From positions 1-15,785 of the forward strand of contig JAPUJS010000481.1 of assembly GCA_027296045.1 (NCBI GenBank): a DNA stretch of 15,785 nt. The letters run 5' to 3'. A program made the translations under genes and the position numbers. This stretch comes from a bacterium (GTDB taxonomy: Bacteria; Latescibacterota; UBA2968). The notes below the pieces were generated by a model. It made no database searches. It had not been told where the DNA came from and saw only the letters and a program-made list of their open reading frames with translations. Of the stretch, positions 44 to 11,817 are shown in pieces (position 1 is the stretch's first letter; each line of letters starts with the position of its first letter).

Positions 44-58
44 TGGCATACGCCTTGC
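44..58 (+). promoter_or_regulatory. Candidate sigma-54 (RpoN) -24/-12 promoter for the pspA operon
   Basis: TGGCAT-acgcc-TTGCG (GG at -24, GC at -12, 5-nt spacer) fits the TGGCAC-N5-TTGCW consensus. It lies about 75 nt upstream of the pspA ATG. An AT-rich tract (11-40) that could be a bending site lies upstream. psp operons in Enterobacteria are sigma-54 dependent. Confidence 0.6.
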
Positions 59-134
59 GAACAAGAGATGGCGTAACCCGTGAATCACCTGACTTGTCAA
101 ATAGAAAAAAGAATCAAAGAGAGAGGAGAACATC

Positions 135-812
135 ATGGCACGTGGAATCTTTTCAAGAATGGCTGACATCATCAGGGCCAATGTCAATGAACTCGTCACC
201 CGGGCGGAAGACCCGGAAAAGATGATCCGACAAATGATTCTGGAAATGGAAGAGGCCGTTAACAAAGCCACCGCCTCGGTCGGAACCGCCGTGGCCAACG
301 AAAAACGTCTGGAACGGCAGCATCTGGAAAAACAAGACCAAATCGAAGCCTGGCAAAGCAAAGCCGAGCTGGCCGTTGAAGCCGGCGAAGACGACCTTGC
401 CCGACGCGCACTGGAACGCAAATCTGCAATTCAGGCTGCTGTCCAGGACCTGGAAGCCGCCCTGGATGAAAGCAAAAAGACGTCGTCCCAGCTCAAACAG
501 CAGCTCACCCAGCTCAAGGGCAAACTCGACGAAGCCCGCACACGCCAGGTCGCCCTCGTTGCACGCCGTCGGGCTGCCGAAGCACGCAAGCAAATCGCCA
601 AGAGTATAACGGGCGTGGGCGACGATGCCTTTTCCAGTTTTGACCGCTTCCGTCAGCGCATTGAAGCCGAAGAGGCCGAAGCCGAAGCCCATCAGGAAAT
701 CGCCGGTGCCGAACCTTCCCTCGACGACGCCTTTGCCAAACTCGAGCGCAAAAGCTCCGTGGAAGACGAACTCAAAGCCCTGAAAGACAAGATGGGAAAG
801 AAAAATGCGTGA
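135..812 (+). CDS. pspA: Phage shock protein A (PspA/IM30 family, ESCRT-III-like membrane remodelling protein)
   Basis: The N-terminus MARGIFSRMADIIRANVNELVTRAEDPEKMIRQMILEMEEAV closely matches the canonical PspA start [40 protein letters not shown]. The protein is 225 aa, helical, coiled-coil rich and charged. An RBS GAGGAG lies 8 nt upstream. Confidence 0.9.
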   Translation: MARGIFSRMADIIRANVNELVTRAEDPEKMIRQMILEMEEAVNKATASVGTAVANEKRLERQHLEKQDQIEAWQSKAELAVEAGEDDLARRALERKSAIQAAVQDLEAALDESKKTSSQLKQQLTQLKGKLDEARTRQVALVARRRAAEARKQIAKSITGVGDDAFSSFDRFRQRIEAEEAEAEAHQEIAGAEPSLDDAFAKLERKSSVEDELKALKDKMGKKNA

Positions 813-1512
813 TCTAGAAAAACTCGCCGACAAGATCGTCTTCGAAGTTGACAGGGCGGTTCGAGAGGTTCAAGATAAAATAGACCGTACGGTCAAACGA
901 GCAGAACAGAAAGTCAGGAAAGCGGAGCGCAGAACACAGCGGGTGTGGGAGTCGCAACCCGACTGGAGTGAATCCCGGACAGTTCGTGACTTCCAGACCG
1001 CTGCCACCAAAATTAAGAAATTCCCCACCCGCATCTCTGACCTGGCCACCGATGGGAGCTGCGCCATGCGATATCTATTTTCCTACTGTCTGAAAGGTTG
1101 GGCTTTCTGCCAGGGATTCGGCGGTCTCATGCTCGTCGCAATCACACTGGCAACCTCTGAACATCCCTGGCGCCAAGAAGAAATCAGTATTGGCCTGGTA
1201 CTCCTTGCCACCTCACAGGTTCTCTGGTGGATCGGTCAGCGCGTGAACAAATCCGCCGACCAGAAAGCCTACGCCCGCGATCAGCATCGCATCTTACGCC
1301 TTGCCCGCGAAAAAGGCGGCAACCTCACCGTCATCGAAGCCGCTACCGACGGACGGATGACCACCGAAAAAGCCGAAGAAATCCTGAGAGAACTGGCTGT
1401 ACAAGGCCACACCGAAGTCCGTGTCACCGACTCGGGCGTGATGGTCTACCACTTCCCAGAAATTTCCCGCTGGGATGAAAAACAGTGGGCCCGACCGGTT
1501 GACGAACTGTAA
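805..1512 (+). CDS. Membrane protein with N-terminal coiled-coil region, two predicted TM helices and a C-terminal winged-helix-like domain. Possible PspA partner or anchor.
   Basis: The start ATGCGTGA overlaps the pspA stop by 8 nt, which suggests translational coupling. Hydrophobic stretches are GFGGLMLVAITLATS and ISIGLVLLATSQVLWWIG. The C-terminus LTVIEAATDGRMTTEKAEEILRELAVQGHTEVRVTDSGVMVYHF has a wH-like pattern. No confident family assignment. Confidence 0.6.
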   Translation: MRDLEKLADKIVFEVDRAVREVQDKIDRTVKRAEQKVRKAERRTQRVWESQPDWSESRTVRDFQTAATKIKKFPTRISDLATDGSCAMRYLFSYCLKGWAFCQGFGGLMLVAITLATSEHPWRQEEISIGLVLLATSQVLWWIGQRVNKSADQKAYARDQHRILRLAREKGGNLTVIEAATDGRMTTEKAEEILRELAVQGHTEVRVTDSGVMVYHFPEISRWDEKQWARPVDEL

Positions 1513-1523
1513 GGGAGAATCCC

Positions 1524-1727
1524 ATGGACATGGACCTGATTTCGATTGGCTTGATGGTCGCCCTGATCATCCTGGCCTCAGCCGTTCACAAATACGTCGA
1601 CCGGCGCACCAAAGGCTCCATCCCCTCCGAAGCGGAAGAACGATTGATGGACCGGATGAATGAACTCGAACGCAGACTCACCGACATTCAAGATGTGATG
1701 CTCACCATTGACGATAAGCTCAATTGA
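1524..1727 (+). CDS. PspB-like small membrane protein, paralog 1 (N-terminal TM, C-terminal conserved helix motif)
   Basis: 67 aa with TM ISIGLMVALIILASAV. The C-terminus SEAEERLMDRMNELERRLTDIQDVMLTIDDKLN resembles the E. coli PspB tail SEQQRLAQLADEAKRMRERIQALESILDAE. RBS AAGGGAG. Confidence 0.7.
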   Translation: MDMDLISIGLMVALIILASAVHKYVDRRTKGSIPSEAEERLMDRMNELERRLTDIQDVMLTIDDKLN

Positions 1728-1744
1728 AGCTAAGGGAGGACACC

Positions 1745-1954
1745 ATGCTTGGCATCACCATGATGATCGTCATCATCATGCTCGCTTCAGCCGCCTGCAA
1801 ATACGTGGACCGGAAAACCCGCCATTTCGGCCCCTCCGAAGCGGAAAAACGACTGATGGACCGAATGGATGAACTCGAACAAAGGCTCACCGATATTCAA
1901 GACATCATGATCGCTATAGATGACAAGATGAGCCGGCCCGAAATGAAAATGTAA
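1745..1954 (+). CDS. PspB-like small membrane protein, paralog 2
   Basis: Start at ATG 1745 (RBS GGGAGGA 6 nt upstream; the track ORF begins at TTG 1724). TM MMIVIIMLASAA. C-terminus SEAEKRLMDRMDELEQRLTDIQDIMIAIDDKM. About 70% identical to paralog 1. Confidence 0.7.
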   Translation: MLGITMMIVIIMLASAACKYVDRKTRHFGPSEAEKRLMDRMDELEQRLTDIQDIMIAIDDKMSRPEMKM

Positions 1955-1979
1955 AAGCGTCTAAAGGAGGGAACCAAGC

Positions 1980-2225
1980 ATGTCACATGAAATTATACGC
2001 ACCGTCTTGGCCGGCATCGTCACGATCATCCTGTCCTCCGGACTTTGTTATTATATCGTCGAGCGTGCAAAATCAAGACCCTGGAAATCCGGCAAAGCCC
2101 CCGACGTGGAAAAACTCGAACAACGCCTCAAATCCTTGGAACAGCGCCTCACTGATATCCAGGACATTGTTCTCTCCATTGACGATCAACTAAAACGCTC
2201 GTCCGGCATTCCCCTTGAGAAATAA
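1980..2225 (+). CDS. PspB-like small membrane protein, paralog 3
   Basis: 81 aa with TM VLAGIVTIILSSGLCYYIV. C-terminus VEKLEQRLKSLEQRLTDIQDIVLSIDDQLKR. RBS AAAGGAGGG. Confidence 0.7.
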   Translation: MSHEIIRTVLAGIVTIILSSGLCYYIVERAKSRPWKSGKAPDVEKLEQRLKSLEQRLTDIQDIVLSIDDQLKRSSGIPLEK

Positions 2226-2237
2226 AGGTCTGATCCC

Positions 2238-3083
2238 ATGAACAAATACCTTCTGTCCATCCTGGGAATCCTGCTCTCCATTTCGCACATCGAAGCCTAC
2301 GAAGGCCTCGACCTGTCGGCCCAAGATATTGCCCAGTTGTCAGCCGTTGGTGTCACTCCCGAATACGTCCAGCAAATTCAACAACTGGGCTACAAAGATA
2401 TCTCTGCCCATGATATTACCCAACTCTATGCCGTTGGTGTGAAACCAGACTACATACGACAAATACGCAAGCTGGGTTATAAAGATATTTCTATCCACGA
2501 CATTACCCAACTCCACGCCGTTGGAGTCAAACCAGACTATGTGAGACAAATCAAAGACCTGGGCTATAAAAACATTTCCATCCACGACATTACCCAACTC
2601 CACGCCGTTGGGGTCAAACCAAACTATGTGAGACAAATCCAAAATCTCGGTTACGACGATATCTCTATCCATGATATCACACAATTTTATGTAACCGGAG
2701 TAACGCCCGACTATATCAAAAAAATGAAGGGCTCAAAAACAAAAATACATATTCCCGAAATCAAAGTGGACGTGCCCAATATCCAGGTTCATATCCCTGA
2801 AATCAAAGTGAATGTCCCACATATTCAGGTTCATGTCTCTGGAGTACAACATACGCGGTCGAACCCATCACGATGGAAAAATGCAGCAAAAATTGCTGGC
2901 TTGAGTTTTCTGGTTCTCGGCATCGGCTTTGCAGTCTATAAACTGAAAGATCCATATCCTGCACCACCCGAAAAACCGGATATAGAATCCCGAATTACCG
3001 AGTTTGAACAACGTGTCACAGACCTTCAGGATATCTTGATCTCCATTGATGACCGATTAAATCGACAATTGAAACATAACTAA
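2238..3083 (+). CDS. Repeat-rich membrane protein: signal peptide, 5x 29-aa tandem repeats, 2x approximately 16-aa repeats, a single TM, and a PspB-like C-terminal motif (paralog 4)
   Basis: The N-terminus MNKYLLSILGILLSISHIEA looks like a signal peptide. The 29-aa repeat DISIHDITQLHAVGVKPDYVRQIKDLGYK occurs five times, and HIPEIKV(D/N)VP(N/H)IQVH occurs twice. TM IAGLSFLVLGIGFAVY. C-terminus RITEFEQRVTDLQDILISIDDRLNRQ. Nucleotide-level tandem repeats span 2390-2690. Confidence 0.75.
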   Translation: MNKYLLSILGILLSISHIEAYEGLDLSAQDIAQLSAVGVTPEYVQQIQQLGYKDISAHDITQLYAVGVKPDYIRQIRKLGYKDISIHDITQLHAVGVKPDYVRQIKDLGYKNISIHDITQLHAVGVKPNYVRQIQNLGYDDISIHDITQFYVTGVTPDYIKKMKGSKTKIHIPEIKVDVPNIQVHIPEIKVNVPHIQVHVSGVQHTRSNPSRWKNAAKIAGLSFLVLGIGFAVYKLKDPYPAPPEKPDIESRITEFEQRVTDLQDILISIDDRLNRQLKHN

Positions 3084-3106
3084 TTTGATCTTTGGAGGGA
3101 CATCCC

Positions 3107-3436
3107 ATGAAATTTCTGTTCCAGCTTGCACTCTGTATCTGTCTGATCATCCTCACGGCAGGAACCATTGGATTTGTTATAGAAGATGGGGACTTTTTTT
3201 CGGGTGGCATCATGCTGATTGTGGTCTGGAGCATTATGTTCGCAATGCTCAAAAGAGCCCTTATTTTTGGTCAATCGGATCAAACCGATTCTGTCAAACA
3301 GGAATGGGCGGACCGCATCACCACCCTTGAAAAACGCCTCACCGACATCCAGGACGTCGTCATCGCGATCGACGATAAGTTGACACGTCAGGAATTCAGA
3401 TCCGATACGACTGTCCGTTCAAAAGAAGAAGCCTGA
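3107..3436 (+). CDS. PspB-like membrane protein, paralog 5 (two TM helices plus the conserved C-terminal motif)
   Basis: Start ATG 3107 with RBS GGAGGGA 6 nt upstream (the track begins at TTG 3092). TMs LALCICLIILTAGTIGFVI and IMLIVVWSIMFAML. C-terminus ADRITTLEKRLTDIQDVVIAIDDKLTRQ. Confidence 0.7.
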   Translation: MKFLFQLALCICLIILTAGTIGFVIEDGDFFSGGIMLIVVWSIMFAMLKRALIFGQSDQTDSVKQEWADRITTLEKRLTDIQDVVIAIDDKLTRQEFRSDTTVRSKEEA

Positions 3437-3498: not shown

Positions 3499-3669
3499 AT
3501 GCTTATCAAAATTCTCGGCATTGTCTTCATGATCGTCGGAGGTGGCATGGCCCTGGGAATCCTGTTCCCCCTTATTGGCTCCATTTTCGGACTCTTGTGG
3601 CTGGCCCTCAAACTGGCTATCGCCCTCGTCTTCGTCTACGTCGGTCACCGGCTCTTTTCTCAAGACTAA
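3499..3669 (+). CDS. Small (56 aa) two-TM membrane protein, PspG-like. Not in the supplied ORF track, probably because it is under the apparent 61-aa cutoff.
   Basis: ATG 3499 is preceded by AGAAAGGA. The product MLIKILGIVFMIVGGGMALGILFPLIGSIFGLLWLALKLAIALVFVYVGHRLFSQD is entirely hydrophobic with a GGG turn. Its length and pattern loosely resemble E. coli PspG (LLFVIGFFVMLMVTG...LPWLLLAIAVVWVI). It lies inside the psp-like cluster. Confidence 0.5.
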   Translation: MLIKILGIVFMIVGGGMALGILFPLIGSIFGLLWLALKLAIALVFVYVGHRLFSQD

Positions 3670-3758: not shown

Positions 3759-4340
3759 ATGTCTCGTTCCAACGACCAAGCCCTCATTCGCAAAGCGCTC
3801 AAAGGCGATCATCAAGCCTTCGAAACGCTTTATAAAGCACACTACCCCCAGATCTATGGGGTCATTGCCCAGCGAGCAAATGATCGCGATCTGATCGATG
3901 ACCTGGTGCAAAACACCTTCATGCGGGCGTTCCGATCGTTGCACACCTTTAAAGGCAACGCCGCTTTCTCAACCTGGCTCACCCAGATCGCCCTCAATGT
4001 GTACCGATCCCATCTTCGGTCCAAACAGGCCCGACAAAACTGGCTGATCGAAACCGAAGACCCCGAGCTTGTCCCGGGCATCATTCGAAACGTTTCTGCC
4101 TTTGACGATCCGGAACAATCCATGCAGAACAAAGAACGCACCGCCCTCATCCGAAAAGGCATCCAGTCTTTGCCCGAACGATATCGAGAAGCCATGTGGT
4201 TGCGCTATGTCAAAGACTGGTCTTACGAAGAAATTACCCATGCCCTTCAGGTGCCTATTGGCACCGTCAAAACCTGGCTTTGCAGAGCCAGGCGTCAACT
4301 GGCCGGAGAATTTCGCAAGATGGGACTCCAACCCGTTTAA
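3759..4340 (+). CDS. ECF-family RNA polymerase sigma-70 factor (sigma-24/RpoE-like)
   Basis: 193 aa. Region 2 is DLVQNTFMRAFRSLHTFKGNAAFSTWLTQIALNVYRSHLR. Region 4 is LPERYREAMWLRYVKDWSYEEITHALQVPIGTVKTWLCRARRQL. Typical ECF architecture. Confidence 0.9.
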   Translation: MSRSNDQALIRKALKGDHQAFETLYKAHYPQIYGVIAQRANDRDLIDDLVQNTFMRAFRSLHTFKGNAAFSTWLTQIALNVYRSHLRSKQARQNWLIETEDPELVPGIIRNVSAFDDPEQSMQNKERTALIRKGIQSLPERYREAMWLRYVKDWSYEEITHALQVPIGTVKTWLCRARRQLAGEFRKMGLQPV

Positions 4341-4395
4341 ACTTGACGGTGGGGTCATTCTGTCCCTATCTTGCCCAATAATAAGGAGGCCGACT

Positions 4396-5001
4396 ATGGA
4401 AGCCTGGTGGGTCGGACTTGCACCCCTGAACCAGATGCTGTATTCTGTCGCCATCTTTTTCAGCATTTTGTTCCTCTGGCAGTTCCTGAGTGCTTTAATT
4501 GGACTGGGCGGCAGTTCGGACTTCGATGTCGCCGAAACCGGTGCCAGTGAACTGGGCCCCGAAGTAGATGACGGATTTCACGAAAGTGGTATTGCCACCT
4601 TCAAATTGCTCTCCGTCCGATCCGTCATCGCCTTTGGGATGCTCTTCGGCTGGGCAAGTGCCCTCTACCTTGAATCGGGCCTGGACCTCTCAGCCGCTGG
4701 ACTTCGGGGCATCTTCTGGGGTACAGCTGGAATGGCGCTGGTTGCCTATTTTTTCTACAAAGTCCAGCGGCTCACCGAAACCGGTAACCTCAAACTGGAA
4801 ACCTGTGTCGGCACCGATGGCGAAGTTTATATCGACATTCCCCAAAACGGAGCCGGTCAAATCCGAGTAATCGAAAGCGGGGTTGTCAACTATGTATCTG
4901 CCCGAAGCAAAGGGGGGAACGCCATCCCGAACAAAACCTCTGTTCGCGTTCTGAAAACCCTCGATATGACCACAGTGGAAGTCGAACCCACCCATTCCTA
5001 A
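4396..5001 (+). CDS. NfeD-like membrane protein (short NfeD/YuaF family; N-terminal TM helices plus C-terminal OB-fold)
   Basis: Start ATG 4396 with RBS AAGGAGG. The TM-rich N-terminus carries the C-terminus GTDGEVYIDIPQNGAGQIRVIESGVVNYVSARSKGGNAIPNKTSVRVLKTLDMTTVEVEP, typical of the NfeD OB domain. It sits immediately upstream of a flotillin gene, as in yuaF-floT operons. Confidence 0.8.
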   Translation: MEAWWVGLAPLNQMLYSVAIFFSILFLWQFLSALIGLGGSSDFDVAETGASELGPEVDDGFHESGIATFKLLSVRSVIAFGMLFGWASALYLESGLDLSAAGLRGIFWGTAGMALVAYFFYKVQRLTETGNLKLETCVGTDGEVYIDIPQNGAGQIRVIESGVVNYVSARSKGGNAIPNKTSVRVLKTLDMTTVEVEPTHS

Positions 5002-5105: not shown

Positions 5106-6755
5106 ATGCCCATCGAGATGATTCTCATCATCGGACTCGCTGCGGTTGTTGTTCTGCTTTTCATTACTTTTATTTCTCGCTACAAACGCTGTCCGTCCAA
5201 TAGAATCCTGGTCATTTATGGCAAAACCGGTACCGGCACAGCGGCCAAATGCATACACGGAGGTGCCGCCTTTGTAATTCCCCTCCTGCAGGACTATGCA
5301 TATCTCGACCTGGAACCCTTTGTGGTTCCCATCGACCTGGACAACGCATTGTCCCAGGAGAACATCCGTGTCTCGGTGCCCACCACCGTTACAGCGGCCA
5401 TCTCCAATCAGCCCGGCATTATGCAAAATGCGGCCGTTCGCCTTTTAGGACTCAGCCGCCAGCAGGTGCAAAGCCAGGCCCAGGACATCATCCTCGGTCA
5501 GATGCGGGCGGTGATTGCCACGATGCAAATTGAGGAAATCAACCGGGACCGCCAGGGCTTTATGAGCAAGGTCAACGAAGCGGTGTCGACCGAGATGGAA
5601 AAAATCGGCCTTACCGTTATCAACGTAAACATCAAAGATATCGATGACGAAAGCGGCTATATCACAGCCATTGGCCGGAAAGCCGCCGCCGAGGCCGTCA
5701 ACCAGGCCGCCATCGATGTGGCCGAACAGGAAAAAATGGGCAAGGTGGGTGTGGCCGAACGGGATCGCGACCGCCGAAAAGCGGTTGCTGCCGCCGAAGC
5801 CAGTGCCGATATTGGCGAATCGGAAGCCGAACGGGAAAGACGTCGACAGGTCGCCGCACTGAACTCCGAAGCAGAAATCGGCGAATCGGAAGCCGAACGG
5901 GAAAAACGCCGACAGGTTGCCGCATTAAACGCCGAAGCAGAAATCGGCGAGGCAGAAGCCGGACGGGACAAACGGCAGCGCGTGGCATCTCTCGAAGCCG
6001 AGGCTGTCCAGACAGAATCCGAAGCGGACGCCAAAAAAGCCGGGTATCTGGCCAACCAGCGTGTGGCCGAGGAAAGTGCCCGACGCAAAAGCGAAGAAGC
6101 CTCCAAAGCGGCTGACGGTGCCATCCGGGTTGCCCAGGAAAATGCGCAAAAAGAAGCCGAAGAAGCCAGAGCGCTTCGCGAAGAAGCCCGTCTGAAAGCC
6201 GAAGTCGTGGTCCAGGCCGAAGCAGAAAAACAGCGTCAGATTGTGGAAGCCGAAGGCGAAAAAGAACAACGACGCCTGGTTGCCGAAGGCGAAGCCGCCG
6301 CCATTCTTGCCCAGAAAGAAGCCGAAGCCAAGGGAACCCAGGCGATCCTGGATGCCAAGGCCGAAGGTTATCGAAAAATGGTCGAAGCCTGCGACCACAA
6401 CGATCAGGCTGCTGCGGCCTTTCTCATTATTGAACGCCTCACCGAAGTCGCCCACATTCAGGCCGAAGCCATCCGCAACCTGCCCATCGAGAAGATCATG
6501 GTCTGGGACAGTGGCAACGGGGAAAGTGGTATGTCCAACCTGGGCCAGCGGTTGATGGGGGCGATTCCCCCAATGCACGATCTGGCTCGCCTGGCCGGAC
6601 TGGAATTGCCCGAATTCCTGGGTAGACTAACCCAGAAAGAAGACGGGGCCACTGGAAATAACCGGACCGGGGAAAAAACAGAAACGCAGGTCGAAAACCA
6701 GGATGCAGCCCAGGATCAGACAGGCGAGACGACAAAAACAGGCGGGGAAGCGTAA
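5106..6755 (+). CDS. Flotillin (SPFH/Band-7 family, FloT/YuaG/YqiK-like)
   Basis: 549 aa. N-terminal TM IIGLAAVVVLLFITFI, then an SPFH domain (RILVIYGKTGTGTAAKCIHGGAAFVIPLLQDYAYLDLEPF...). Long E/A-rich coiled-coil repeats (EAEIGESEAERERRRQVAALN x3) and a conserved C-terminus IIERLTEVAHIQAEAIRNL. RBS GGAGGGGAGGG. Confidence 0.9.
   Translation: MPIEMILIIGLAAVVVLLFITFISRYKRCPSNRILVIYGKTGTGTAAKCIHGGAAFVIPLLQDYAYLDLEPFVVPIDLDNALSQENIRVSVPTTVTAAISNQPGIMQNAAVRLLGLSRQQVQSQAQDIILGQMRAVIATMQIEEINRDRQGFMSKVNEAVSTEMEKIGLTVINVNIKDIDDESGYITAIGRKAAAEAVNQAAIDVAEQEKMGKVGVAERDRDRRKAVAAAEASADIGESEAERERRRQVAALNSEAEIGESEAEREKRRQVAALNAEAEIGEAEAGRDKRQRVASLEAEAVQTESEADAKKAGYLANQRVAEESARRKSEEASKAADGAIRVAQENAQKEAEEARALREEARLKAEVVVQAEAEKQRQIVEAEGEKEQRRLVAEGEAAAILAQKEAEAKGTQAILDAKAEGYRKMVEACDHNDQAAAAFLIIERLTEVAHIQAEAIRNLPIEKIMVWDSGNGESGMSNLGQRLMGAIPPMHDLARLAGLELPEFLGRLTQKEDGATGNNRTGEKTETQVENQDAAQDQTGETTKTGGEA
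5811..6008 (+). repeat. Three tandem approximately 66-nt in-frame repeats inside flotillin (22-aa EA-rich coiled-coil units)
   Basis: ATCGGCGAATCGGAAGCCGAACGGGAAA(G/A)ACG(T/C)CGACAGGT(C/T)GCCGCA... repeated, with the third copy more diverged. Confidence 0.8.
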
Positions 6756-6824
6756 GGCGTGAAACAGATATTGCGCCAATAACTTCTCAACCGCACACCC
6801 ATTTTTAAACAAAAAATCACAAAA

Positions 6825-6916
6825 GGCCACGAAGTCCAACCGCTCCCTTCCGGGAGCAAAGGTGGGTTTCGTGGCCCTTCGTGAAAGGAAAGGGTCGGAG
6901 TCGAGGCCCTTCGTGA
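6825..6916 (+). promoter_or_regulatory. Structured intergenic region upstream of the histidine kinase gene: a hairpin plus reiterated TTCGTG motifs
   Basis: GGCCACGAAG...(nested CTCCCttccGGGAG)...TTTCGTGGCC forms a hairpin with an approximately 10-bp stem. The direct repeats GGCCCTTCGTGA appear at about 6873-6884 and 6905-6916. Confidence 0.4.
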
Positions 6917-6946
6917 TCCCGCTCTTTACCGAATGAATATGTAGCC

Positions 6947-8581
6947 ATGTCCAACCTCAAAACCGAAACCCACCAGCCCCCTCGGCCTTCCGACCAGATC
7001 GAAATTGCTCGGGAACTCCCGGAATCGTCGAACCCCGAAGCAAGTCGGTTTTCCAGACAGGGGGATGTCGCCCTCAAAAACGGGGACCTGTCCGAAGCAG
7101 TCAAAGCCTATCAAAAAGCCGTCAAGGCCGATCGCAACGACCTTCGCTCTCACCACAACCTGGGCGTGGTTTCCTACCAGCAGGAAAACTGGGAAATGGC
7201 GCAATCCTACCTGGACCGCTGCGTTCAACTTGCCCCCGAAGACTCCGATTTGCTCTTCAAACAGGGCCTGTGTGCCTTGAAACAAAATCGACGTGAAGAG
7301 GCATCCAGAGCCTTTTCCAGTGTCCTGAAATTGGACCCCGACCATCTGCGTTCCCGGTTTCAAGTGGCCCTCCTGCACGCCCGTGGAACGGCCACCGTTT
7401 CCAGAGATCGGCAAAAAGCGATTGAAAACCTGGAATACATCCTGGAGGCCTGCGGCCGGGGCGTGTCCTTCCAGAACCTGGACCGCGTCTGTTTTCTTCT
7501 GGGCAGTTTTCTAGACGACCACCCCGACAATCGCGACCAGGCCATTGCCGTCTATCGACGGGGGCTCGATGTAGATCCCTTTTTCGCCCCGGGTCACAAC
7601 AACCTGGGCGTACTTTTGATGCAAGACGGACAAACACTTCCTGCCCTGGGGGCTTTCAAAATCGCTGTCCAGCTCGAACCCGACTACACCCTGCCCTATG
7701 GCAATCTCGCTCGCCTCTTGTTTGACCATATGAGTCCAACCCAGATGGAGCAAGAATTTGGGTCCATCGTAGACGAGTTTGGTATTCAAGCACCGTCTGT
7801 CCTCGTCCAGCTTTCCCTGGAACTCATCGACCTGGGACGCGGGCAGGTCTACGAAAGCCTTTATACCCACGGCCACCGCATCAAAAACTTGATGGGCATG
7901 TCTGGCGCCCGAATGCGGCGTCTGATTCGCGATTTCCCCCAGGATGCGCACGGCCTGGATGAACTTCAAAGCATTGCCCACGACCAGGAACAGATCTTCA
8001 ACCAGTGGGTCGCCTATCTCCGGTCGATGAAACAGGGGACAATGAACCTCACCCTGGTTGACGTGTCCCAACTCGTTCATAAAACCACCGGCGGCCTGTC
8101 TGCCCAGGCCGGATCAAAAACCCTGCACTTTGCATCCGAAACCCGGGTTCCCCAGGTCAAAGCAGATGCCGGTATGCTTCGGGAAGCCGTGACCAACCTC
8201 ACCCTCAATGCCCTGCAAGCCGTAGAGGAAGAAAGCGGCAAAGTCACCGTTCAAGTGGGACACGATCCATTGCGCGCCTCCGTTTATATCGAAGTCGAAG
8301 ACAACGGACCTGGCATCCCTGATGCCCAACAAGCCCGGATCTTCGACCCCGGTTATACCACCCGTCAAAACGGCAACGGCTACGGCTTGAGCATCTGTGC
8401 CCGAATCGCCTCCGCACACCGGGGCCACCTGCGCCTGATCAGCCAGCCGGGAGCCGGAGCAGTCTTTCGCATCGACCTCCCGATCGACTTTGAAGTGTCT
8501 GCCCAGGAAGACACCATTGGTCTCCAGCGTTCTGTTGCAGACGTTTCCACCGATCCGGTGACCGAAGAATTCGTTCTATAA
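6947..8581 (+). CDS. Soluble sensor histidine kinase with an N-terminal TPR-repeat domain and a C-terminal HATPase_c
   Basis: TPR-like repeats (AVKAYQKAVKADRNDLRSHHNLGVV; WEMAQSYLDRCVQLAPEDSDLLFKQGLC). N-box LREAVTNLTLNALQA. G1 VEDNGPGIP. G2 GNGYGLSICARI. No TM segment. Candidate H-site SIAHDQEQIFNQ, which is non-canonical. Confidence 0.8.
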   Translation: MSNLKTETHQPPRPSDQIEIARELPESSNPEASRFSRQGDVALKNGDLSEAVKAYQKAVKADRNDLRSHHNLGVVSYQQENWEMAQSYLDRCVQLAPEDSDLLFKQGLCALKQNRREEASRAFSSVLKLDPDHLRSRFQVALLHARGTATVSRDRQKAIENLEYILEACGRGVSFQNLDRVCFLLGSFLDDHPDNRDQAIAVYRRGLDVDPFFAPGHNNLGVLLMQDGQTLPALGAFKIAVQLEPDYTLPYGNLARLLFDHMSPTQMEQEFGSIVDEFGIQAPSVLVQLSLELIDLGRGQVYESLYTHGHRIKNLMGMSGARMRRLIRDFPQDAHGLDELQSIAHDQEQIFNQWVAYLRSMKQGTMNLTLVDVSQLVHKTTGGLSAQAGSKTLHFASETRVPQVKADAGMLREAVTNLTLNALQAVEEESGKVTVQVGHDPLRASVYIEVEDNGPGIPDAQQARIFDPGYTTRQNGNGYGLSICARIASAHRGHLRLISQPGAGAVFRIDLPIDFEVSAQEDTIGLQRSVADVSTDPVTEEFVL

Positions 8582-8641: not shown

Positions 8642-8693
8642 ATCGATTTATCTTGTATCGATCGACTTGTCTTGTAAATCGACTTATCTTGTT
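8642..8693 (+). promoter_or_regulatory. Three tandem 16-bp direct repeats ending exactly at the response-regulator start codon
   Basis: ATCGATTTATCTTGTA (8642-8657), ATCGACTTGTCTTGTA (8661-8676), ATCGACTTATCTTGTT (8678-8693). The ATG is at 8694. Confidence 0.75.
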
Positions 8694-10103
8694 ATGAATA
8701 AACAAATTCTTGTTGCAGACGACCAGATTGAAGTTCTCGATATGCTCATCCGAAGCCTTCAGGCCGATGAGCGAGACGTCCAGGCCTTTTCCACCGGAAG
8801 GGAAGCCCTCGTCTATCTCCAGCAACACCCATCGGATGTGGACATGGCCATTCTGGATCTGGATTTTGGCCCCGACGAGCCCGATGGCCTGGAGATCTTG
8901 CAGCAAATGCGGGACGAAATCCCCGACCTGCCCGTCATCATCCTCACCGGACAGGGCACCATTGATACGGCCGTGGCTGCCCTGAGACTGGGTGCGGTGG
9001 ACTTTATCGAAAAAGACTTCTATATTGAAGATAAAATCGAGATCAGTCTGGAAAAGCTGGACCGGATGCTCACGGCGCTCCGGGAAAACGCCCGGCTCAA
9101 GGTTGAGGTCCAAAATTTGGACCGGGAAAACCAGCTTTACCGATCGGAATTCGGCAAGCGCTACCGCGTAATCGGCGACAGCCCCCAGTGGCAACAGGTC
9201 CTGCGCCAGGCCGAACAAATTGCGTCCATTCCCCGACCTGCCCTCATCCTGGGCGAGCCCGGCACGGGCAAAGAACTGGTTGCCGCTGCCATTCACTATG
9301 GAGGGGTGCGCAAAGATCGCCCTTTTGTAAAAGTCAACTGCGCCGCCCTGTCCGACCAACTCCTGGCAAGTGAACTCTTCGGGCATGAGAAAGGCGCTTA
9401 CACGGGTGCTACAGAAGCCCGCATCGGCAAATTTGAAGCCGCCAATGGCGGTACGATTTTCCTCGATGAAATAGGAAATACCACCCCGGGATTTCAGCAA
9501 AATATCCTTCGGGCCATCGAATATCAGGAAGTTCAGCGCGTTGGATCGGCAACCCCGGTCTCTGTAGACACCCGGGTGATTGCCGCTACCAACGCCGACC
9601 TGGAAAAAGAAATGGCCGAAGGCCGTTTTCGCCAGGACCTCTACGACCGCCTGCGTTTCGAAGTCATTCGAATGCCCCCCCTCCGAGAACGCCGGGAAGA
9701 CATCGCAGACCTGGCCAATTTCTTTGTTGCACAAATCACCGAGGAAGTCCCCGGACTCCAGGTTCGACCGTTCTCGGATGAGGCCCTGAAAAATCTTCAA
9801 ACCTACCACTGGCCCGGCAATGTACGGGAACTCAAGTTTGCCGCCGAACGAGCCGCCTGTGTGGCCACCGGTTCTCAAATCGAGCCCGGTGATTTGCCGC
9901 CCGAAATCGCCGGCGATGTTCCGATTGTCTCCTCCGGTGAAGGATATGAAGCCCAGATCAGAGCCTTCGAACTGGGCCTGCTCAGACGGTCGTTGAACGA
10001 AACCGTCTGGAACCAGCGGGAGGCGGCCAAAAAACTCAAGCTCAGCTACGACCAGTTCCGGCATCTGTATCGAAAATACAAACTCAATCGTGAGAAACCC
10101 TAA
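8694..10103 (+). CDS. Sigma-54-dependent response regulator (NtrC family: receiver + AAA+ sigma-54 interaction domain + Fis-type HTH)
   Basis: Receiver MNKQILVADDQ...DMAILDLDFG...LTGQGTIDTAVAALRLGAVDFIEKD. Walker A GEPGTGKE. The GAFTGA-type loop ELFGHEKGAYTGA. ESELFG and RERREDI motifs. C-terminal HTH WNQREAAKKLKLSYDQFRHLYRKYKL. Start chosen at 8694; an in-frame ATG at 8667 is also possible. Confidence 0.9.
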   Translation: MNKQILVADDQIEVLDMLIRSLQADERDVQAFSTGREALVYLQQHPSDVDMAILDLDFGPDEPDGLEILQQMRDEIPDLPVIILTGQGTIDTAVAALRLGAVDFIEKDFYIEDKIEISLEKLDRMLTALRENARLKVEVQNLDRENQLYRSEFGKRYRVIGDSPQWQQVLRQAEQIASIPRPALILGEPGTGKELVAAAIHYGGVRKDRPFVKVNCAALSDQLLASELFGHEKGAYTGATEARIGKFEAANGGTIFLDEIGNTTPGFQQNILRAIEYQEVQRVGSATPVSVDTRVIAATNADLEKEMAEGRFRQDLYDRLRFEVIRMPPLRERREDIADLANFFVAQITEEVPGLQVRPFSDEALKNLQTYHWPGNVRELKFAAERAACVATGSQIEPGDLPPEIAGDVPIVSSGEGYEAQIRAFELGLLRRSLNETVWNQREAAKKLKLSYDQFRHLYRKYKLNREKP

Positions 10104-10230: not shown

Positions 10231-11817
10231 ATGCTACACCCCAAAACCCCCAAACTCAGCCTCCGGACCTGCTTTTTCGACAGCTTCACCTTGTGGGTGA
10301 ACCACATCCCTGTCCTGTTTATCGCCACCTTTCTCACCTTCTTCCTCAGCTCGATTACCTTCACCTTGTTTATGGGCAGTCTCTACGCCGGCTTGCTGAT
10401 GATGCTTTTACAAGGCCTGCGCGGGGAGAAGCCCATTTTACGAGACCTCTTTGGCCAGTTTCGTCGCTTCATCCGCTTTTTCTCCATTACCCTGTTTATC
10501 TTGCTCTTCTTCATTTTCGGGCTTGCCCTCCTGGCCGGACCGCTTTTTTTTCTTTCCAATACCGAAATTCCATCCGAGATCCTCCAGGAAATCGAAGCCG
10601 GGATGCAAGAGGAAGGCATTCACCTTCGCCCCAGAGAAATTCTGCAATTTGTCAAAAACAGCGATTTTCTTGTCCCCGCCATCCTGATCACATTCTGCTT
10701 TATCGTGCTTCCTGGCATTTTTTTTATTGTCAAATGCTTCTACATGTATCTCCTGGCCGCCGACCGGGGCGTTCACCTGGATGAAGCTTATGTCGAAAGC
10801 CGAAAAGCCGTTGAGAGATACGGGTTCCGAAAGCATTTTTTTCTTATTTTTGCCGCCCTGGCCATCTTCTTCGGAAGCGATCTGATGGTTCGCAAAATGA
10901 CCGATGTCCCCATCGCCGAATTTTTTCCGCTCTTTGTCTTCCCCTTTGCCGTGGGCCTGTTTGTTTCGGCCTACCACCAGACCTTAGAAGCTGAAGCCCG
11001 ACAATCTCAGTTTTATCGCGAAGAGTTTGAAGTCATGCGCGACGAACTCCAGACCGCCCATGACATGCAAATGGAGCTGCTTCCCGATGAAAGCCCCGAA
11101 CTCTCCGGGTTCTCCCTGGATGGAACCTGCATCCCGGCCAATAACGTGGGCGGCGATTATTTCGCCTATCGCTGGCTCGATACAGAAAAAACGCGGCTGG
11201 CCATCCTGGTTGCCGATGTCTCCGGAAAGGCGATGGAAGCCGCCGTCACGGCCCTTCGCTTCAACGAAATGCTCCGATATGAATCTCGCGCCCGGATCGA
11301 TCCGGGCGAAATCCTGGATGGATTAAACGATTCGCTGGAAGGACAGATCGACACCGATACCTTTATCACCTGTGTGATTGGCGTCCTGGATATCACAGAC
11401 AATATCATTCACATTGCCAACGCCGGTCACTGTTTCCCCTATCACTACCGGGACCGAGATCAAAAAGCCGTCCCGGTTAATCTCACGGGCTGCCCGCTCG
11501 GCCTGCCCGCCATCATTCGGCCGGAAGAGCCGTATGAAACCCGTCAGGTCAAACTCGAACCGGGTGATATGATCGCCTTCTACTCCGACGGGGTGGTCGA
11601 AGCCCAGAATGCCCGGCACGAACTGTATGAAGATGAGCGCTTTGAAAAACTCCTGGAAACCATTGCGCCGGGAGCAAAACCAGACCGGGTGGTTCGAGCC
11701 GTTGTCCGGGAAGTCAATCAATATATCGGAGATGCCCCACGAACCGACGACGTCACCATTGTGGTTTTAAAACGGGACGGCCAGAGCGGCCCGGCAAACG
11801 ATTCGGAAACACCCTGA
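10231..11817 (+). CDS. Polytopic membrane PP2C-family (SpoIIE/RsbU-type) serine phosphatase
   Basis: An N-terminal hydrophobic domain of about 250 aa with 5 or more TM segments, then a coiled-coil linker. PPM domain motifs: GGDYFAYRWL, LAILVADVSGKAMEAA, ANAGHCFPY, GDMIAFYSDGVVEAQN, DDVTIVVLK. No SD upstream (see the palindrome), so the exact start is uncertain. Confidence 0.8.
   Translation: MLHPKTPKLSLRTCFFDSFTLWVNHIPVLFIATFLTFFLSSITFTLFMGSLYAGLLMMLLQGLRGEKPILRDLFGQFRRFIRFFSITLFILLFFIFGLALLAGPLFFLSNTEIPSEILQEIEAGMQEEGIHLRPREILQFVKNSDFLVPAILITFCFIVLPGIFFIVKCFYMYLLAADRGVHLDEAYVESRKAVERYGFRKHFFLIFAALAIFFGSDLMVRKMTDVPIAEFFPLFVFPFAVGLFVSAYHQTLEAEARQSQFYREEFEVMRDELQTAHDMQMELLPDESPELSGFSLDGTCIPANNVGGDYFAYRWLDTEKTRLAILVADVSGKAMEAAVTALRFNEMLRYESRARIDPGEILDGLNDSLEGQIDTDTFITCVIGVLDITDNIIHIANAGHCFPYHYRDRDQKAVPVNLTGCPLGLPAIIRPEEPYETRQVKLEPGDMIAFYSDGVVEAQNARHELYEDERFEKLLETIAPGAKPDRVVRAVVREVNQYIGDAPRTDDVTIVVLKRDGQSGPANDSETP

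Follow-up and report, generated by a model that had tools for sequence, protein, structure and literature searches.

The components of the phage-shock (Psp) response that are understood least, down to the signals they sense, are PspB and PspC. Here, we describe a DNA stretch of 15,785 nucleotides (the window; positions 1 to 15,785 of contig JAPUJS010000481.1, assembly GCA_027296045.1, with genes tagged O7G87_18065 and following) from a bacterium of the Latescibacterota, in which pspA precedes an array of five open reading frames (ORFs), W1–W5, that carry a common cytoplasmic helix behind different N-terminal parts. In Escherichia coli, the C-terminal leucine zipper of PspC binds PspA (PMC3068692, PMC5596341), whereas both contact with the kinase ArcB and signalling depend on the zipper of PspB (PMC3068692); PspB also self-associates (PMC3068692, PMC5596341). 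PspB is rare outside the Proteobacteria and is duplicated in some psp operons, and a divergent PspB-like domain can be present at the C-terminus of PspC (Ravi et al. 2024, PMC11237479). A preliminary description of the window had taken PspB to be normally present as a single copy that pairs with PspC to capture PspA; the first point is not strictly true given these duplications; as to the second, in the classical system it is the PspC zipper that binds PspA, and the locus contains no PspC-domain protein. A second comparison is with the LiaI/LiaF anchors of the Firmicutes, which are likewise small membrane proteins encoded beside a PspA homologue (LiaH) and a dedicated two-component system, and whose role as membrane anchors of PspA is analogous, but which have no sequence relation to W1–W5.

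What is new in this locus is, plausibly, that a PspB-like protein has turned into a modular unit with several copies, within a conserved Psp/flotillin/sigma-54/extracytoplasmic function (ECF) sigma supercluster. Our literature search found no paper joining Latescibacteria with phage shock, and two large comparative papers on Psp systems make no mention of Latescibacteria (for PMC11237479, the text was searched for the term, and neither of the two is among the papers that contain it).

The five consecutive ORFs fill positions 1524-3436 on the forward strand in the ORF list (Table 1). Each of the five proteins ends, after a membrane helix, in the motif R-[LV]-T-D-[IL]-Q-D...I-D-D, and alignments show the residues R..E.R.TD.QD....IDD to be invariant across W1–W5. 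A six-frame scan of the window with the pattern [RK][LVIM][TS][DE][LIVM][QE][DE] gave exactly five matches, one in each ORF, and all of them fit the core [RK][LV]TD[IL]QD. None of the other proteins of the window exceeded 3 bits against the hidden Markov model (HMM) of the family, and kinship of the motif with the N-terminal helix of p235 (the protein encoded between pspA and the array) or with any other window protein was rejected at scores of at most 7 bits.

By hydropathy, W1–W3 have a single N-terminal transmembrane (TM) helix with a K/R-rich C-flank, that is, a C-in orientation; W4 has a signal-like N-terminus, a repeat region of ~190 aa and one TM helix at residues 216-234; and W5 has two TM helices. 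The preliminary description of five tandem ORFs with a common C-terminal motif, placed after one or two TM helices and behind divergent N-termini, is therefore confirmed, and the combination of a common helix with varied N-termini turns out to be a property of the whole family, beyond the window.

Two of the gene starts were corrected: W2 begins at the ATG at 1745 (69 aa), the alternative TTG start at 1724 (76 aa) being without a Shine–Dalgarno (SD) sequence, and W5 begins at the ATG at 3107, which gives the 109 aa of the NCBI protein P0028 and not 114 aa. A GGAG-type SD sequence lies 6-9 nt before each of the five ATGs, and the intergenic gaps in the array are 11-25 nt; because of these features and the 8-nt overlap of the p235 start with the pspA stop, the array reads as one operon.

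The closest relatives of the window are TARA Oceans metagenome contigs and metagenome-assembled genomes (MAGs) of Candidatus Latescibacterota. One TARA Oceans contig, L142, has the same five genes in identical order, followed by the same 56-aa gene (p57), with 73-91% aa identity between W1–W5 and their counterparts (88% for W2). The ratios of nonsynonymous to synonymous substitution rates (dN/dS) are 0.13 for W1, 0.47 for W2, 0.43 for W3, 0.17 for W4, and 0.20 for W5. The motif is identical between the two contigs in all five genes, and the substitutions in W2 and W3 concentrate in the N-terminal parts. W1–W5 are real genes under purifying selection.

An AlphaFold2 (AF2) model of W1 from a 35-sequence alignment (predicted local distance difference test, pLDDT, 79) consists of a TM helix at residues 2-29, a short loop, and a 32-residue helix at 35-66. 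In this numbering, L41, M45, L48, L52, I55, M59, I62, and L66 have the perfect 4-3 spacing of a heptad repeat. Conservation within the module, measured in an alignment of 264 sequences whose members were picked partly via the motif itself, is 99% for R44, 98% for R51, 84% for T53, 100% for D54, 98% for Q56, and 91% for D57.

The repeat region of W4 can already be recognized in the DNA, where a tandem repeat with a period of 87 bp (3.4 copies, 79% matches) encodes 29-aa helical repeats of the form DISIHDITQLHAVGVKPDYVRQIxxLGY, of which the protein has five of ~29 aa. A second repeat of 42 bp (14 aa; IHIPEIKVxVPxIQV) adjoins the membrane segment. The 29-aa repeat type is also present in W4-type relatives, and the sole match of the repeat region among PDB sequences is a de novo designed helical repeat protein, which is functionally uninformative.

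The preliminary description had proposed a search for the motif by alignment and profile, and this search defines a family (working name B*). A profile of the five modules matched at least 250 proteins at E ≤ 0.01 in a set of 5.8 billion; among the matches listed, most are 65-73 aa long, and every one is named "hypothetical" and is free of Pfam domains. When 1.84 billion cluster representatives were searched exhaustively with HMMER, at least 235 clusters (50% identity) were matched at E ≤ 1e-3, and in every one of them the module of TM and motif helix is C-terminal, with total protein lengths of 65 to 446 aa. Members come nearly all from Candidatus Latescibacterota MAGs, and their canonical consensus, to which W1 conforms, is MxxIGxMVAIIILASAVHKYxDRRTKGSIPSDAEERLxARMDELDRRLTDIQDVMITIDEKLSRK. 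No Pfam or NCBIfam model covers the family, and a sequence search of the PDB with the family profile returned generic coiled coils only (E ≥ 0.16). A new profile would improve the annotation of members now called "hypothetical".

What precedes the module varies widely. There may be nothing (members of 65-90 aa), one extra TM hairpin (~100-125 aa, the W5 type), a further TM helix with a coiled coil (~150-195 aa), 29-aa helical repeats (~250-290 aa, the W4 type), a CBM9-like domain (PF06452; CBM9_1 E 5e-9; ~330-446 aa), or a TM2 domain (PF05154). Fusions to TM2 or CBM9-like ectodomains can be seen, e.g., at 5660-8324 of locus L054 and at 9116-9475 of locus L004. W1–W5 are diverged paralogues of long standing within this unnamed family of small inner-membrane proteins.

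To place the array in its genomic context, one genome per GTDB species was scanned, four loci were added by look-up, and the loci were searched locally with phmmer and hmmsearch. The scan returned 47 loci on 47 contigs, one per genome, nearly all from Candidatus Latescibacterota, with a few labelled Gemmatimonadota and one Handelsmanbacteria. Upstream of the array, pspA is present in all 50 scan and look-up loci with sufficient upstream sequence and likewise in the distant locus types L052, L054, and L139, that is, in 53 of 53 loci. The array does therefore lie behind pspA, as first described, but not directly, p235 being placed between them.

The usual gene order is a sigma-54 promoter, pspA, a p235 homologue, one to five family members, p57, an ECF sigma factor, an NfeD-like protein, flotillin, a tetratricopeptide repeat (TPR) histidine kinase, an activator that joins a receiver (REC) domain to a sigma-54 activator domain, and a SpoIIE phosphatase. 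A single family member is found in 8 loci, two in 12, three in 26, and four in 5; the maximum of five is confined to the window and its TARA relative.

The order of types within the array is fixed: a W1-type gene leads and a W5-type gene is always last, before p57. The arrays read W1-W3-W4-W5 in L012 and L015, W1-W4-W5 in L016, and W3-W4-W5 in L049. Between W1 and the leading array gene of Latescibacterota loci, identity is 65-81%; the W3 orthologues in L012, L015, and L049 are 47-49% identical, and the W4 orthologues in L012, L015, and L016 (278-299 aa) are 37-42% identical. Given this fixed order and the orthologues of each type, the paralogues are old and orthologous across genomes; W2 is a later duplicate of W1.

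Distant subfamilies (members with the tail ALSEKxDRWE, and the CBM9 and TM2 fusions) also adjoin pspA on its downstream side, in arrays of three. L052 has pspA, p235, three members, the TPR kinase, and the sigma-54 regulator, and L139 has the same order plus p57. L054 consists of pspA, a TM2 fusion, two CBM9 fusions, and a p57-like protein with four TM helices in tandem arrangement; neither p235, ECF sigma, nor flotillin is found in this cluster, and no kinase within 6 kb downstream. Since L054 is without p235 and the TPR kinase, pspA is the sole neighbour in every locus. Some ORFs at array positions score only 9-21 bits with the family HMM (L002 8213-8884, L033 7042-7269, L013 7449-7649, and L046 7712-7918); these sub-threshold or fused ORFs look like decayed or frameshifted array members and point to gain and loss of copies.

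A remote kinship of the family with PspB and the C-terminus of PspC is plausible. When 147 family representatives were compared with the 18,950 NCBIfam models, PspC and PspB were the most frequently matched: TIGR02978 (PspC) by eight representatives (best E 1.2e-5) and TIGR02976 (PspB) by six (best E 1.8e-4 and ~15 bits, the cut-off being 51.7). The Pfam model of PspB, PF06667, was matched by three (best E 1e-3). Within the window, W3 (19 bits) and W5 (14 bits) match TIGR02978, and this only in its C-terminal half. Matches to this model cover profile positions ~40-116, that is, the TM helix and zipper, at 13-19 bits against a cut-off of 104; the N-terminal PspC domain (PF04024), made up of a cytoplasmic stretch and a TM helix with the conserved Gly, was not matched by any of the ten scanned window proteins or the 147 representatives. 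Ten members of the ALSEKxDRWE subfamily, scanned as a possible bridge to PspB, gave no PspB match.

For direct comparison, the E. coli PspB reference sequence was confirmed by protein search. Its homologues among the 120 matches listed are enterobacterial only (at least 72% identity), a tblastn search of plasmids added only the PspB and PspC of Aeromonas, and a metagenome scan with the PspB alignment gave 80 near-identical E. coli loci. With hhalign, the family aligns with enterobacterial PspB, with or without the Aeromonas sequence, by placing RLxxRLxELER on RMRERIQALES, at a probability of 22-52% over 11 columns and with a shallow PspB alignment (effective number of sequences, Neff, 1.4-1.7). 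The score of 20.8 compares with 11.4 +/- 2.6 for a permuted null and was reached in 2 of 300 rounds of permuting the cytoplasmic columns. When the PspB models are used in HMMER, a second, collinear register is favoured, LKYVERRSKGGISDSAEQRL against LHYSNRSSRSELSQSEQQRL. Against Aeromonas PspC, hhalign pairs GSIPSEAEERLMDRMNELERRLTDIQDVMLTI with GVTPHQALVRIGQELDALEPRVQRIEKLVTSK (E 0.024), in the register LEPRVQRIEKLVTS against LERRLTDIQDVMIT.

In a ranking that included 6,930 ORFs of the loci as background, E. coli PspB came 5th and Aeromonas PspB 8th, and the sequence that we take to be E. coli PspC came 7th. Of the four non-family ORFs with higher ranks, three are situated in the array region; the fourth is found on the other strand, upstream of the array. 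PspA, flotillin, and p235, which are rich in coiled coils, have lower scores.

Several further features are held in common with PspB: a length of ~65-80 aa (67-81 aa for W1–W3), a single N-terminal TM helix with the C-terminus inside, a cytoplasmic helix with leucine-zipper heptads, a gene downstream of pspA in a sigma-54-driven operon, and the weak but repeated similarity of RMRERIQALES to RLxxRLxELER. In contrast, the invariant RLTDIQD...IDEK core of the family is not in PspB; there are up to five copies, no PspC partner in the locus, and curated profiles fail; the ectodomains (helical repeats, CBM9, TM2) and extra TM helices are undescribed for PspB; and the phylum is one outside the Proteobacteria, where PspB is reported to be rare (PMC11237479). 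With the C-terminal half of Aeromonas PspC, the family has the register LE.R[LV]..I[EQ]..[VM].[TS] in common, but it is without the N-terminal domain (PF04024) that defines PspC.

We give a probability of about 50% to the reading that these proteins correspond, in the Latescibacterota, to PspB and to the C-terminal half of PspC and act as input adaptors with a common docking helix. The variable part would lie outside or within the membrane, as nothing, an extra TM helix, or helical repeats, or as TM2 or CBM9 domains in relatives, and would be followed by one TM helix and the common cytoplasmic helix of ~26 residues. This helix most likely forms parallel homo- or heterodimers among the paralogues; a parallel coiled coil is suggested because the core is a heptad repeat with R44/E49 and R51/Q56 at g/e positions. 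The invariant, exposed T53-D54..D57 patch, with the likewise invariant R44, R51, Q56, and D63, would then form a common docking surface, and a common partner is suggested because T53, D54, and D57 occupy the b, c, and f positions and face outward yet are nearly invariant.

Under the adaptor reading, the paralogues would be alternative inputs or anchors that couple different envelope conditions to one cytoplasmic Psp partner. This partner is most likely PspA itself, by analogy with the PspC zipper and because pspA is the only invariant neighbour. The outcome would be control over the recruitment of PspA to the membrane, over expression of the sigma-54-driven pspA operon, or over both.

Several observations weigh against this reading and should be kept in mind. 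W1–W5 gave no match to PF06667, a comparison that the preliminary description had proposed, or to TIGR02976 at E ≤ 1; every match of the family lies far below the curated PspB and PspC cut-offs, and a generic coiled-coil family, DUF7310, is matched in Pfam by 11 of the 147 representatives at similar levels. Precomputed Pfam annotation likewise shows no PspC domain in the syntenic loci. The profile–profile probabilities are low (2-52% across comparisons), this test is weak because the PspB alignment is not diverse, and the register is ambiguous because those of hhalign and HMMER compete. The response regulator of the locus has a receiver domain, so control may run via phosphorylation and not via sequestration of PspA, and the proposal that the N-termini sense signals derives from their diversity alone.

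By the curated thresholds, the family is not PspB, and kinship with PspB is only suggested, because the curated models are unreached and the register is ambiguous. The PspB-like C-terminus of the preliminary description stands insofar as PspB and PspC are the top NCBIfam matches and hhalign selects the very RMRERIQALES segment that it had named; its interpretation overall is partly supported.

PspB has been considered almost confined to the Proteobacteria; the module described here, which resembles PspB, occurs in an uncultured phylum at one to five copies per locus. Its exchangeable outward parts and invariant inward helix would amount to a natural dissection of input and output, and the ectodomains (CBM9, TM2, helical repeats) point to candidate signals. 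In the conserved supercluster of about 14 genes, PspA is combined with flotillin/NfeD, an ECF sigma factor, a PP2C phosphatase, and a two-component system of the sigma-54 type.

Among rival partners, the strongest is the TPR histidine kinase, whose gene lies six genes downstream, and it is conceivable, though not likely, that the common helix is a ligand of its TPR domain. Several membrane inputs would then converge on one kinase, which would phosphorylate the REC-sigma-54 activator and thereby fire the pspA promoter. The kinase is expected to need a protein input because it has TPR repeats and no TM segment, and it is syntenic in all but one locus type; kinase and sigma-54 regulator occur together in almost all loci (including L052, L139, and L141), and the promoter before pspA is conserved. 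The E. coli PspB zipper, needed for contact with ArcB and for signal transduction (PMC3068692), offers a precedent. L054, however, has pspA and three family members, with no kinase within 6 kb downstream. The usual ligands of TPR domains are extended peptides or short helices.

A structural role without sensing, in which the helix zips the paralogues into a hetero-oligomer that organizes a flotillin/PspA patch, possibly with p235 and p57, appears rather unlikely. The perfect heptad and the charged e/g positions (R44/E49, R51/Q56) do fit a parallel coiled coil, the fixed order of paralogue types hints at stoichiometric co-assembly, and flotillin and the NfeD-like protein are syntenic. A zipper alone, however, needs no conservation of outward residues, and T53, D54, and D57 are 84-100% conserved; copy numbers of one to five among related genomes and the decayed copies are a better fit to accessory inputs, and the ectodomains of the CBM9 and TM2 types resemble modules for ligand binding or sensing.

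One might also expect an ECF sigma gene placed after the array and p57 in nearly all loci, with no recognizable anti-sigma gene on either side of it, to be held in check by the array proteins themselves, acting as unorthodox anti-sigma factors whose helix tethers the sigma factor to the membrane and releases it upon an envelope signal. We consider this highly improbable, because no anti-sigma domain of the zf-HC2/RsiW type was found with Pfam in W1–W5 or the 147 relatives and because the arrays of L052, L054, and L139 have no ECF sigma gene nearby; the orientation is also opposite to that of classical anti-sigma factors (N-out, with the binding part C-terminal to the TM helix). Chance ORFs, or a recent and functionless selfish duplication, may come to mind given the small size of three of the ORFs, but are counted as already refuted by the SD sites, a dN/dS below 1 for all five genes, the orthologues of each paralogue type, and the 235 family clusters.

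Table 1. Features of the window, in order of position (TM, transmembrane helix)
Feature	Position	Strand	Description
sigma-54 -24/-12 element	44-59	+	TGGCATACGCCTTGCG; 92 nt before the pspA ATG
pspA	135-812	+	225 aa; PF04012 E 1.4e-45; TIGR02977 E 1.5e-54, below equivalog cut-off
p235	805-1512	+	235 aa; start overlaps pspA stop by 8 nt; without Pfam/NCBIfam family
W1	1524-1727	+	67 aa; canonical family member, one TM and motif helix; core RLTDIQD 1674-1694
W2	1745-1954	+	69 aa; W1-like duplicate; motif core 1883-1903
W3	1980-2225	+	81 aa; one TM, longer linker, IDDQLKR-type tail; motif core 2145-2165
W4	2238-3083	+	281 aa; signal-like N-terminus, repeats, one TM; motif core 3012-3032
W4, 87-bp tandem repeat	2373-2671		
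W4, 42-bp repeat	2748-2841		
W5	3107-3436	+	109 aa; two TMs; motif core 3335-3355
p57	3499-3669	+	56 aa; two TMs; closes array in almost every locus; family not found
ECF-type sigma factor	3759-4340	+	193 aa; Sigma70_r2 E 6e-17, Sigma70_r4_2 E 5e-16; syntenic
Membrane protein in NfeD/YqiJ position	4396-5001	+	~200 aa; 2-3 TMs; without Pfam/NCBIfam match; precedes flotillin across loci
Flotillin/Band-7	5106-6755	+	549 aa; NF058507 FloT E 3e-45, below cut-off; PF01145 in homologues
TPR histidine kinase	6947-8581	+	544 aa; soluble, no hydrophobic segment; homologues carry TPR and HATPase_c; syntenic
Response regulator REC-AAA+	8667-10103	+	homologues carry PF00072 and PF00158; syntenic
SpoIIE/PP2C phosphatase	10231-11817	+	multi-TM; PF07228 in homologues

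The strict sigma-54 pattern has a single match on the forward strand of the window, the element before pspA. In 48 of 49 related loci, an element of the strict or of a relaxed form (xGG[CT]AC-N5-TTGC) precedes pspA by 75-111 nt, and in most of the 14-16 kb loci with the strict pattern, the element upstream of pspA is the only strict match on the forward strand. The kinase, the REC-sigma-54 activator, and the SpoIIE phosphatase come after flotillin in most related loci. The REC-sigma-54 regulator likely activates the pspA promoter, and it would then be a PspF-like activator under phosphorylation control, instead of or besides control by PspA sequestration.

The p235 protein has 135 homologues, all unnamed, and lies between pspA and the array in nearly all loci. 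In its AF2 model (pLDDT 84.5), an N-terminal helix of 50 residues is followed by two long hydrophobic helices and, at the C-terminus, by a winged helix. A Foldseek search of the PDB returned winged-helix proteins only, among them MarR-type regulators, TFE, and ESCRT-II, at E values of about 2e-3 to 2e-2. The match to human ESCRT-II EAP30/VPS22 (3cuq_A) covers 60 columns at 1.5 A and 32% identity (E 5e-3). PspA belongs to the ESCRT-III superfamily, and the ESCRT-II match is suggestive because PspA is ESCRT-III-like; statistically, it is no better than the other winged-helix matches, including those to MarR-type regulators. A more speculative and, in our estimate, doubtful proposal is that the family represents a hitherto unrecognized modular class of input adaptors, in which ordered arrays of interchangeable ectodomain or TM sensors address a single soluble receiver (the TPR kinase or PspA) through one invariant helix, and the translationally coupled p235 would be a membrane-anchored, ESCRT-II-like winged-helix nucleator of PspA. 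Such a design, in which many sensors feed one output, would be undescribed for Psp systems.

The p57 protein ends in a conserved ..Y.G[YW]RL. A resemblance to LiaI/LiaF-TM is a lead seen by eye, and only one of 19 homologues weakly matched the LiaF-TM Pfam model (E 0.035). For the membrane protein before flotillin, the label NfeD-like is based on its position and on a C-terminus that appears beta-rich by eye; the 310-aa ORF with a TTG start that is listed here (4069-5001) is probably too long because it overlaps the ECF sigma gene. In the translation of flotillin, the coiled-coil region (about residues 225-300) contains about three near-identical tandem copies of the peptide SEAEIGESEAEREKRRQVAALN.

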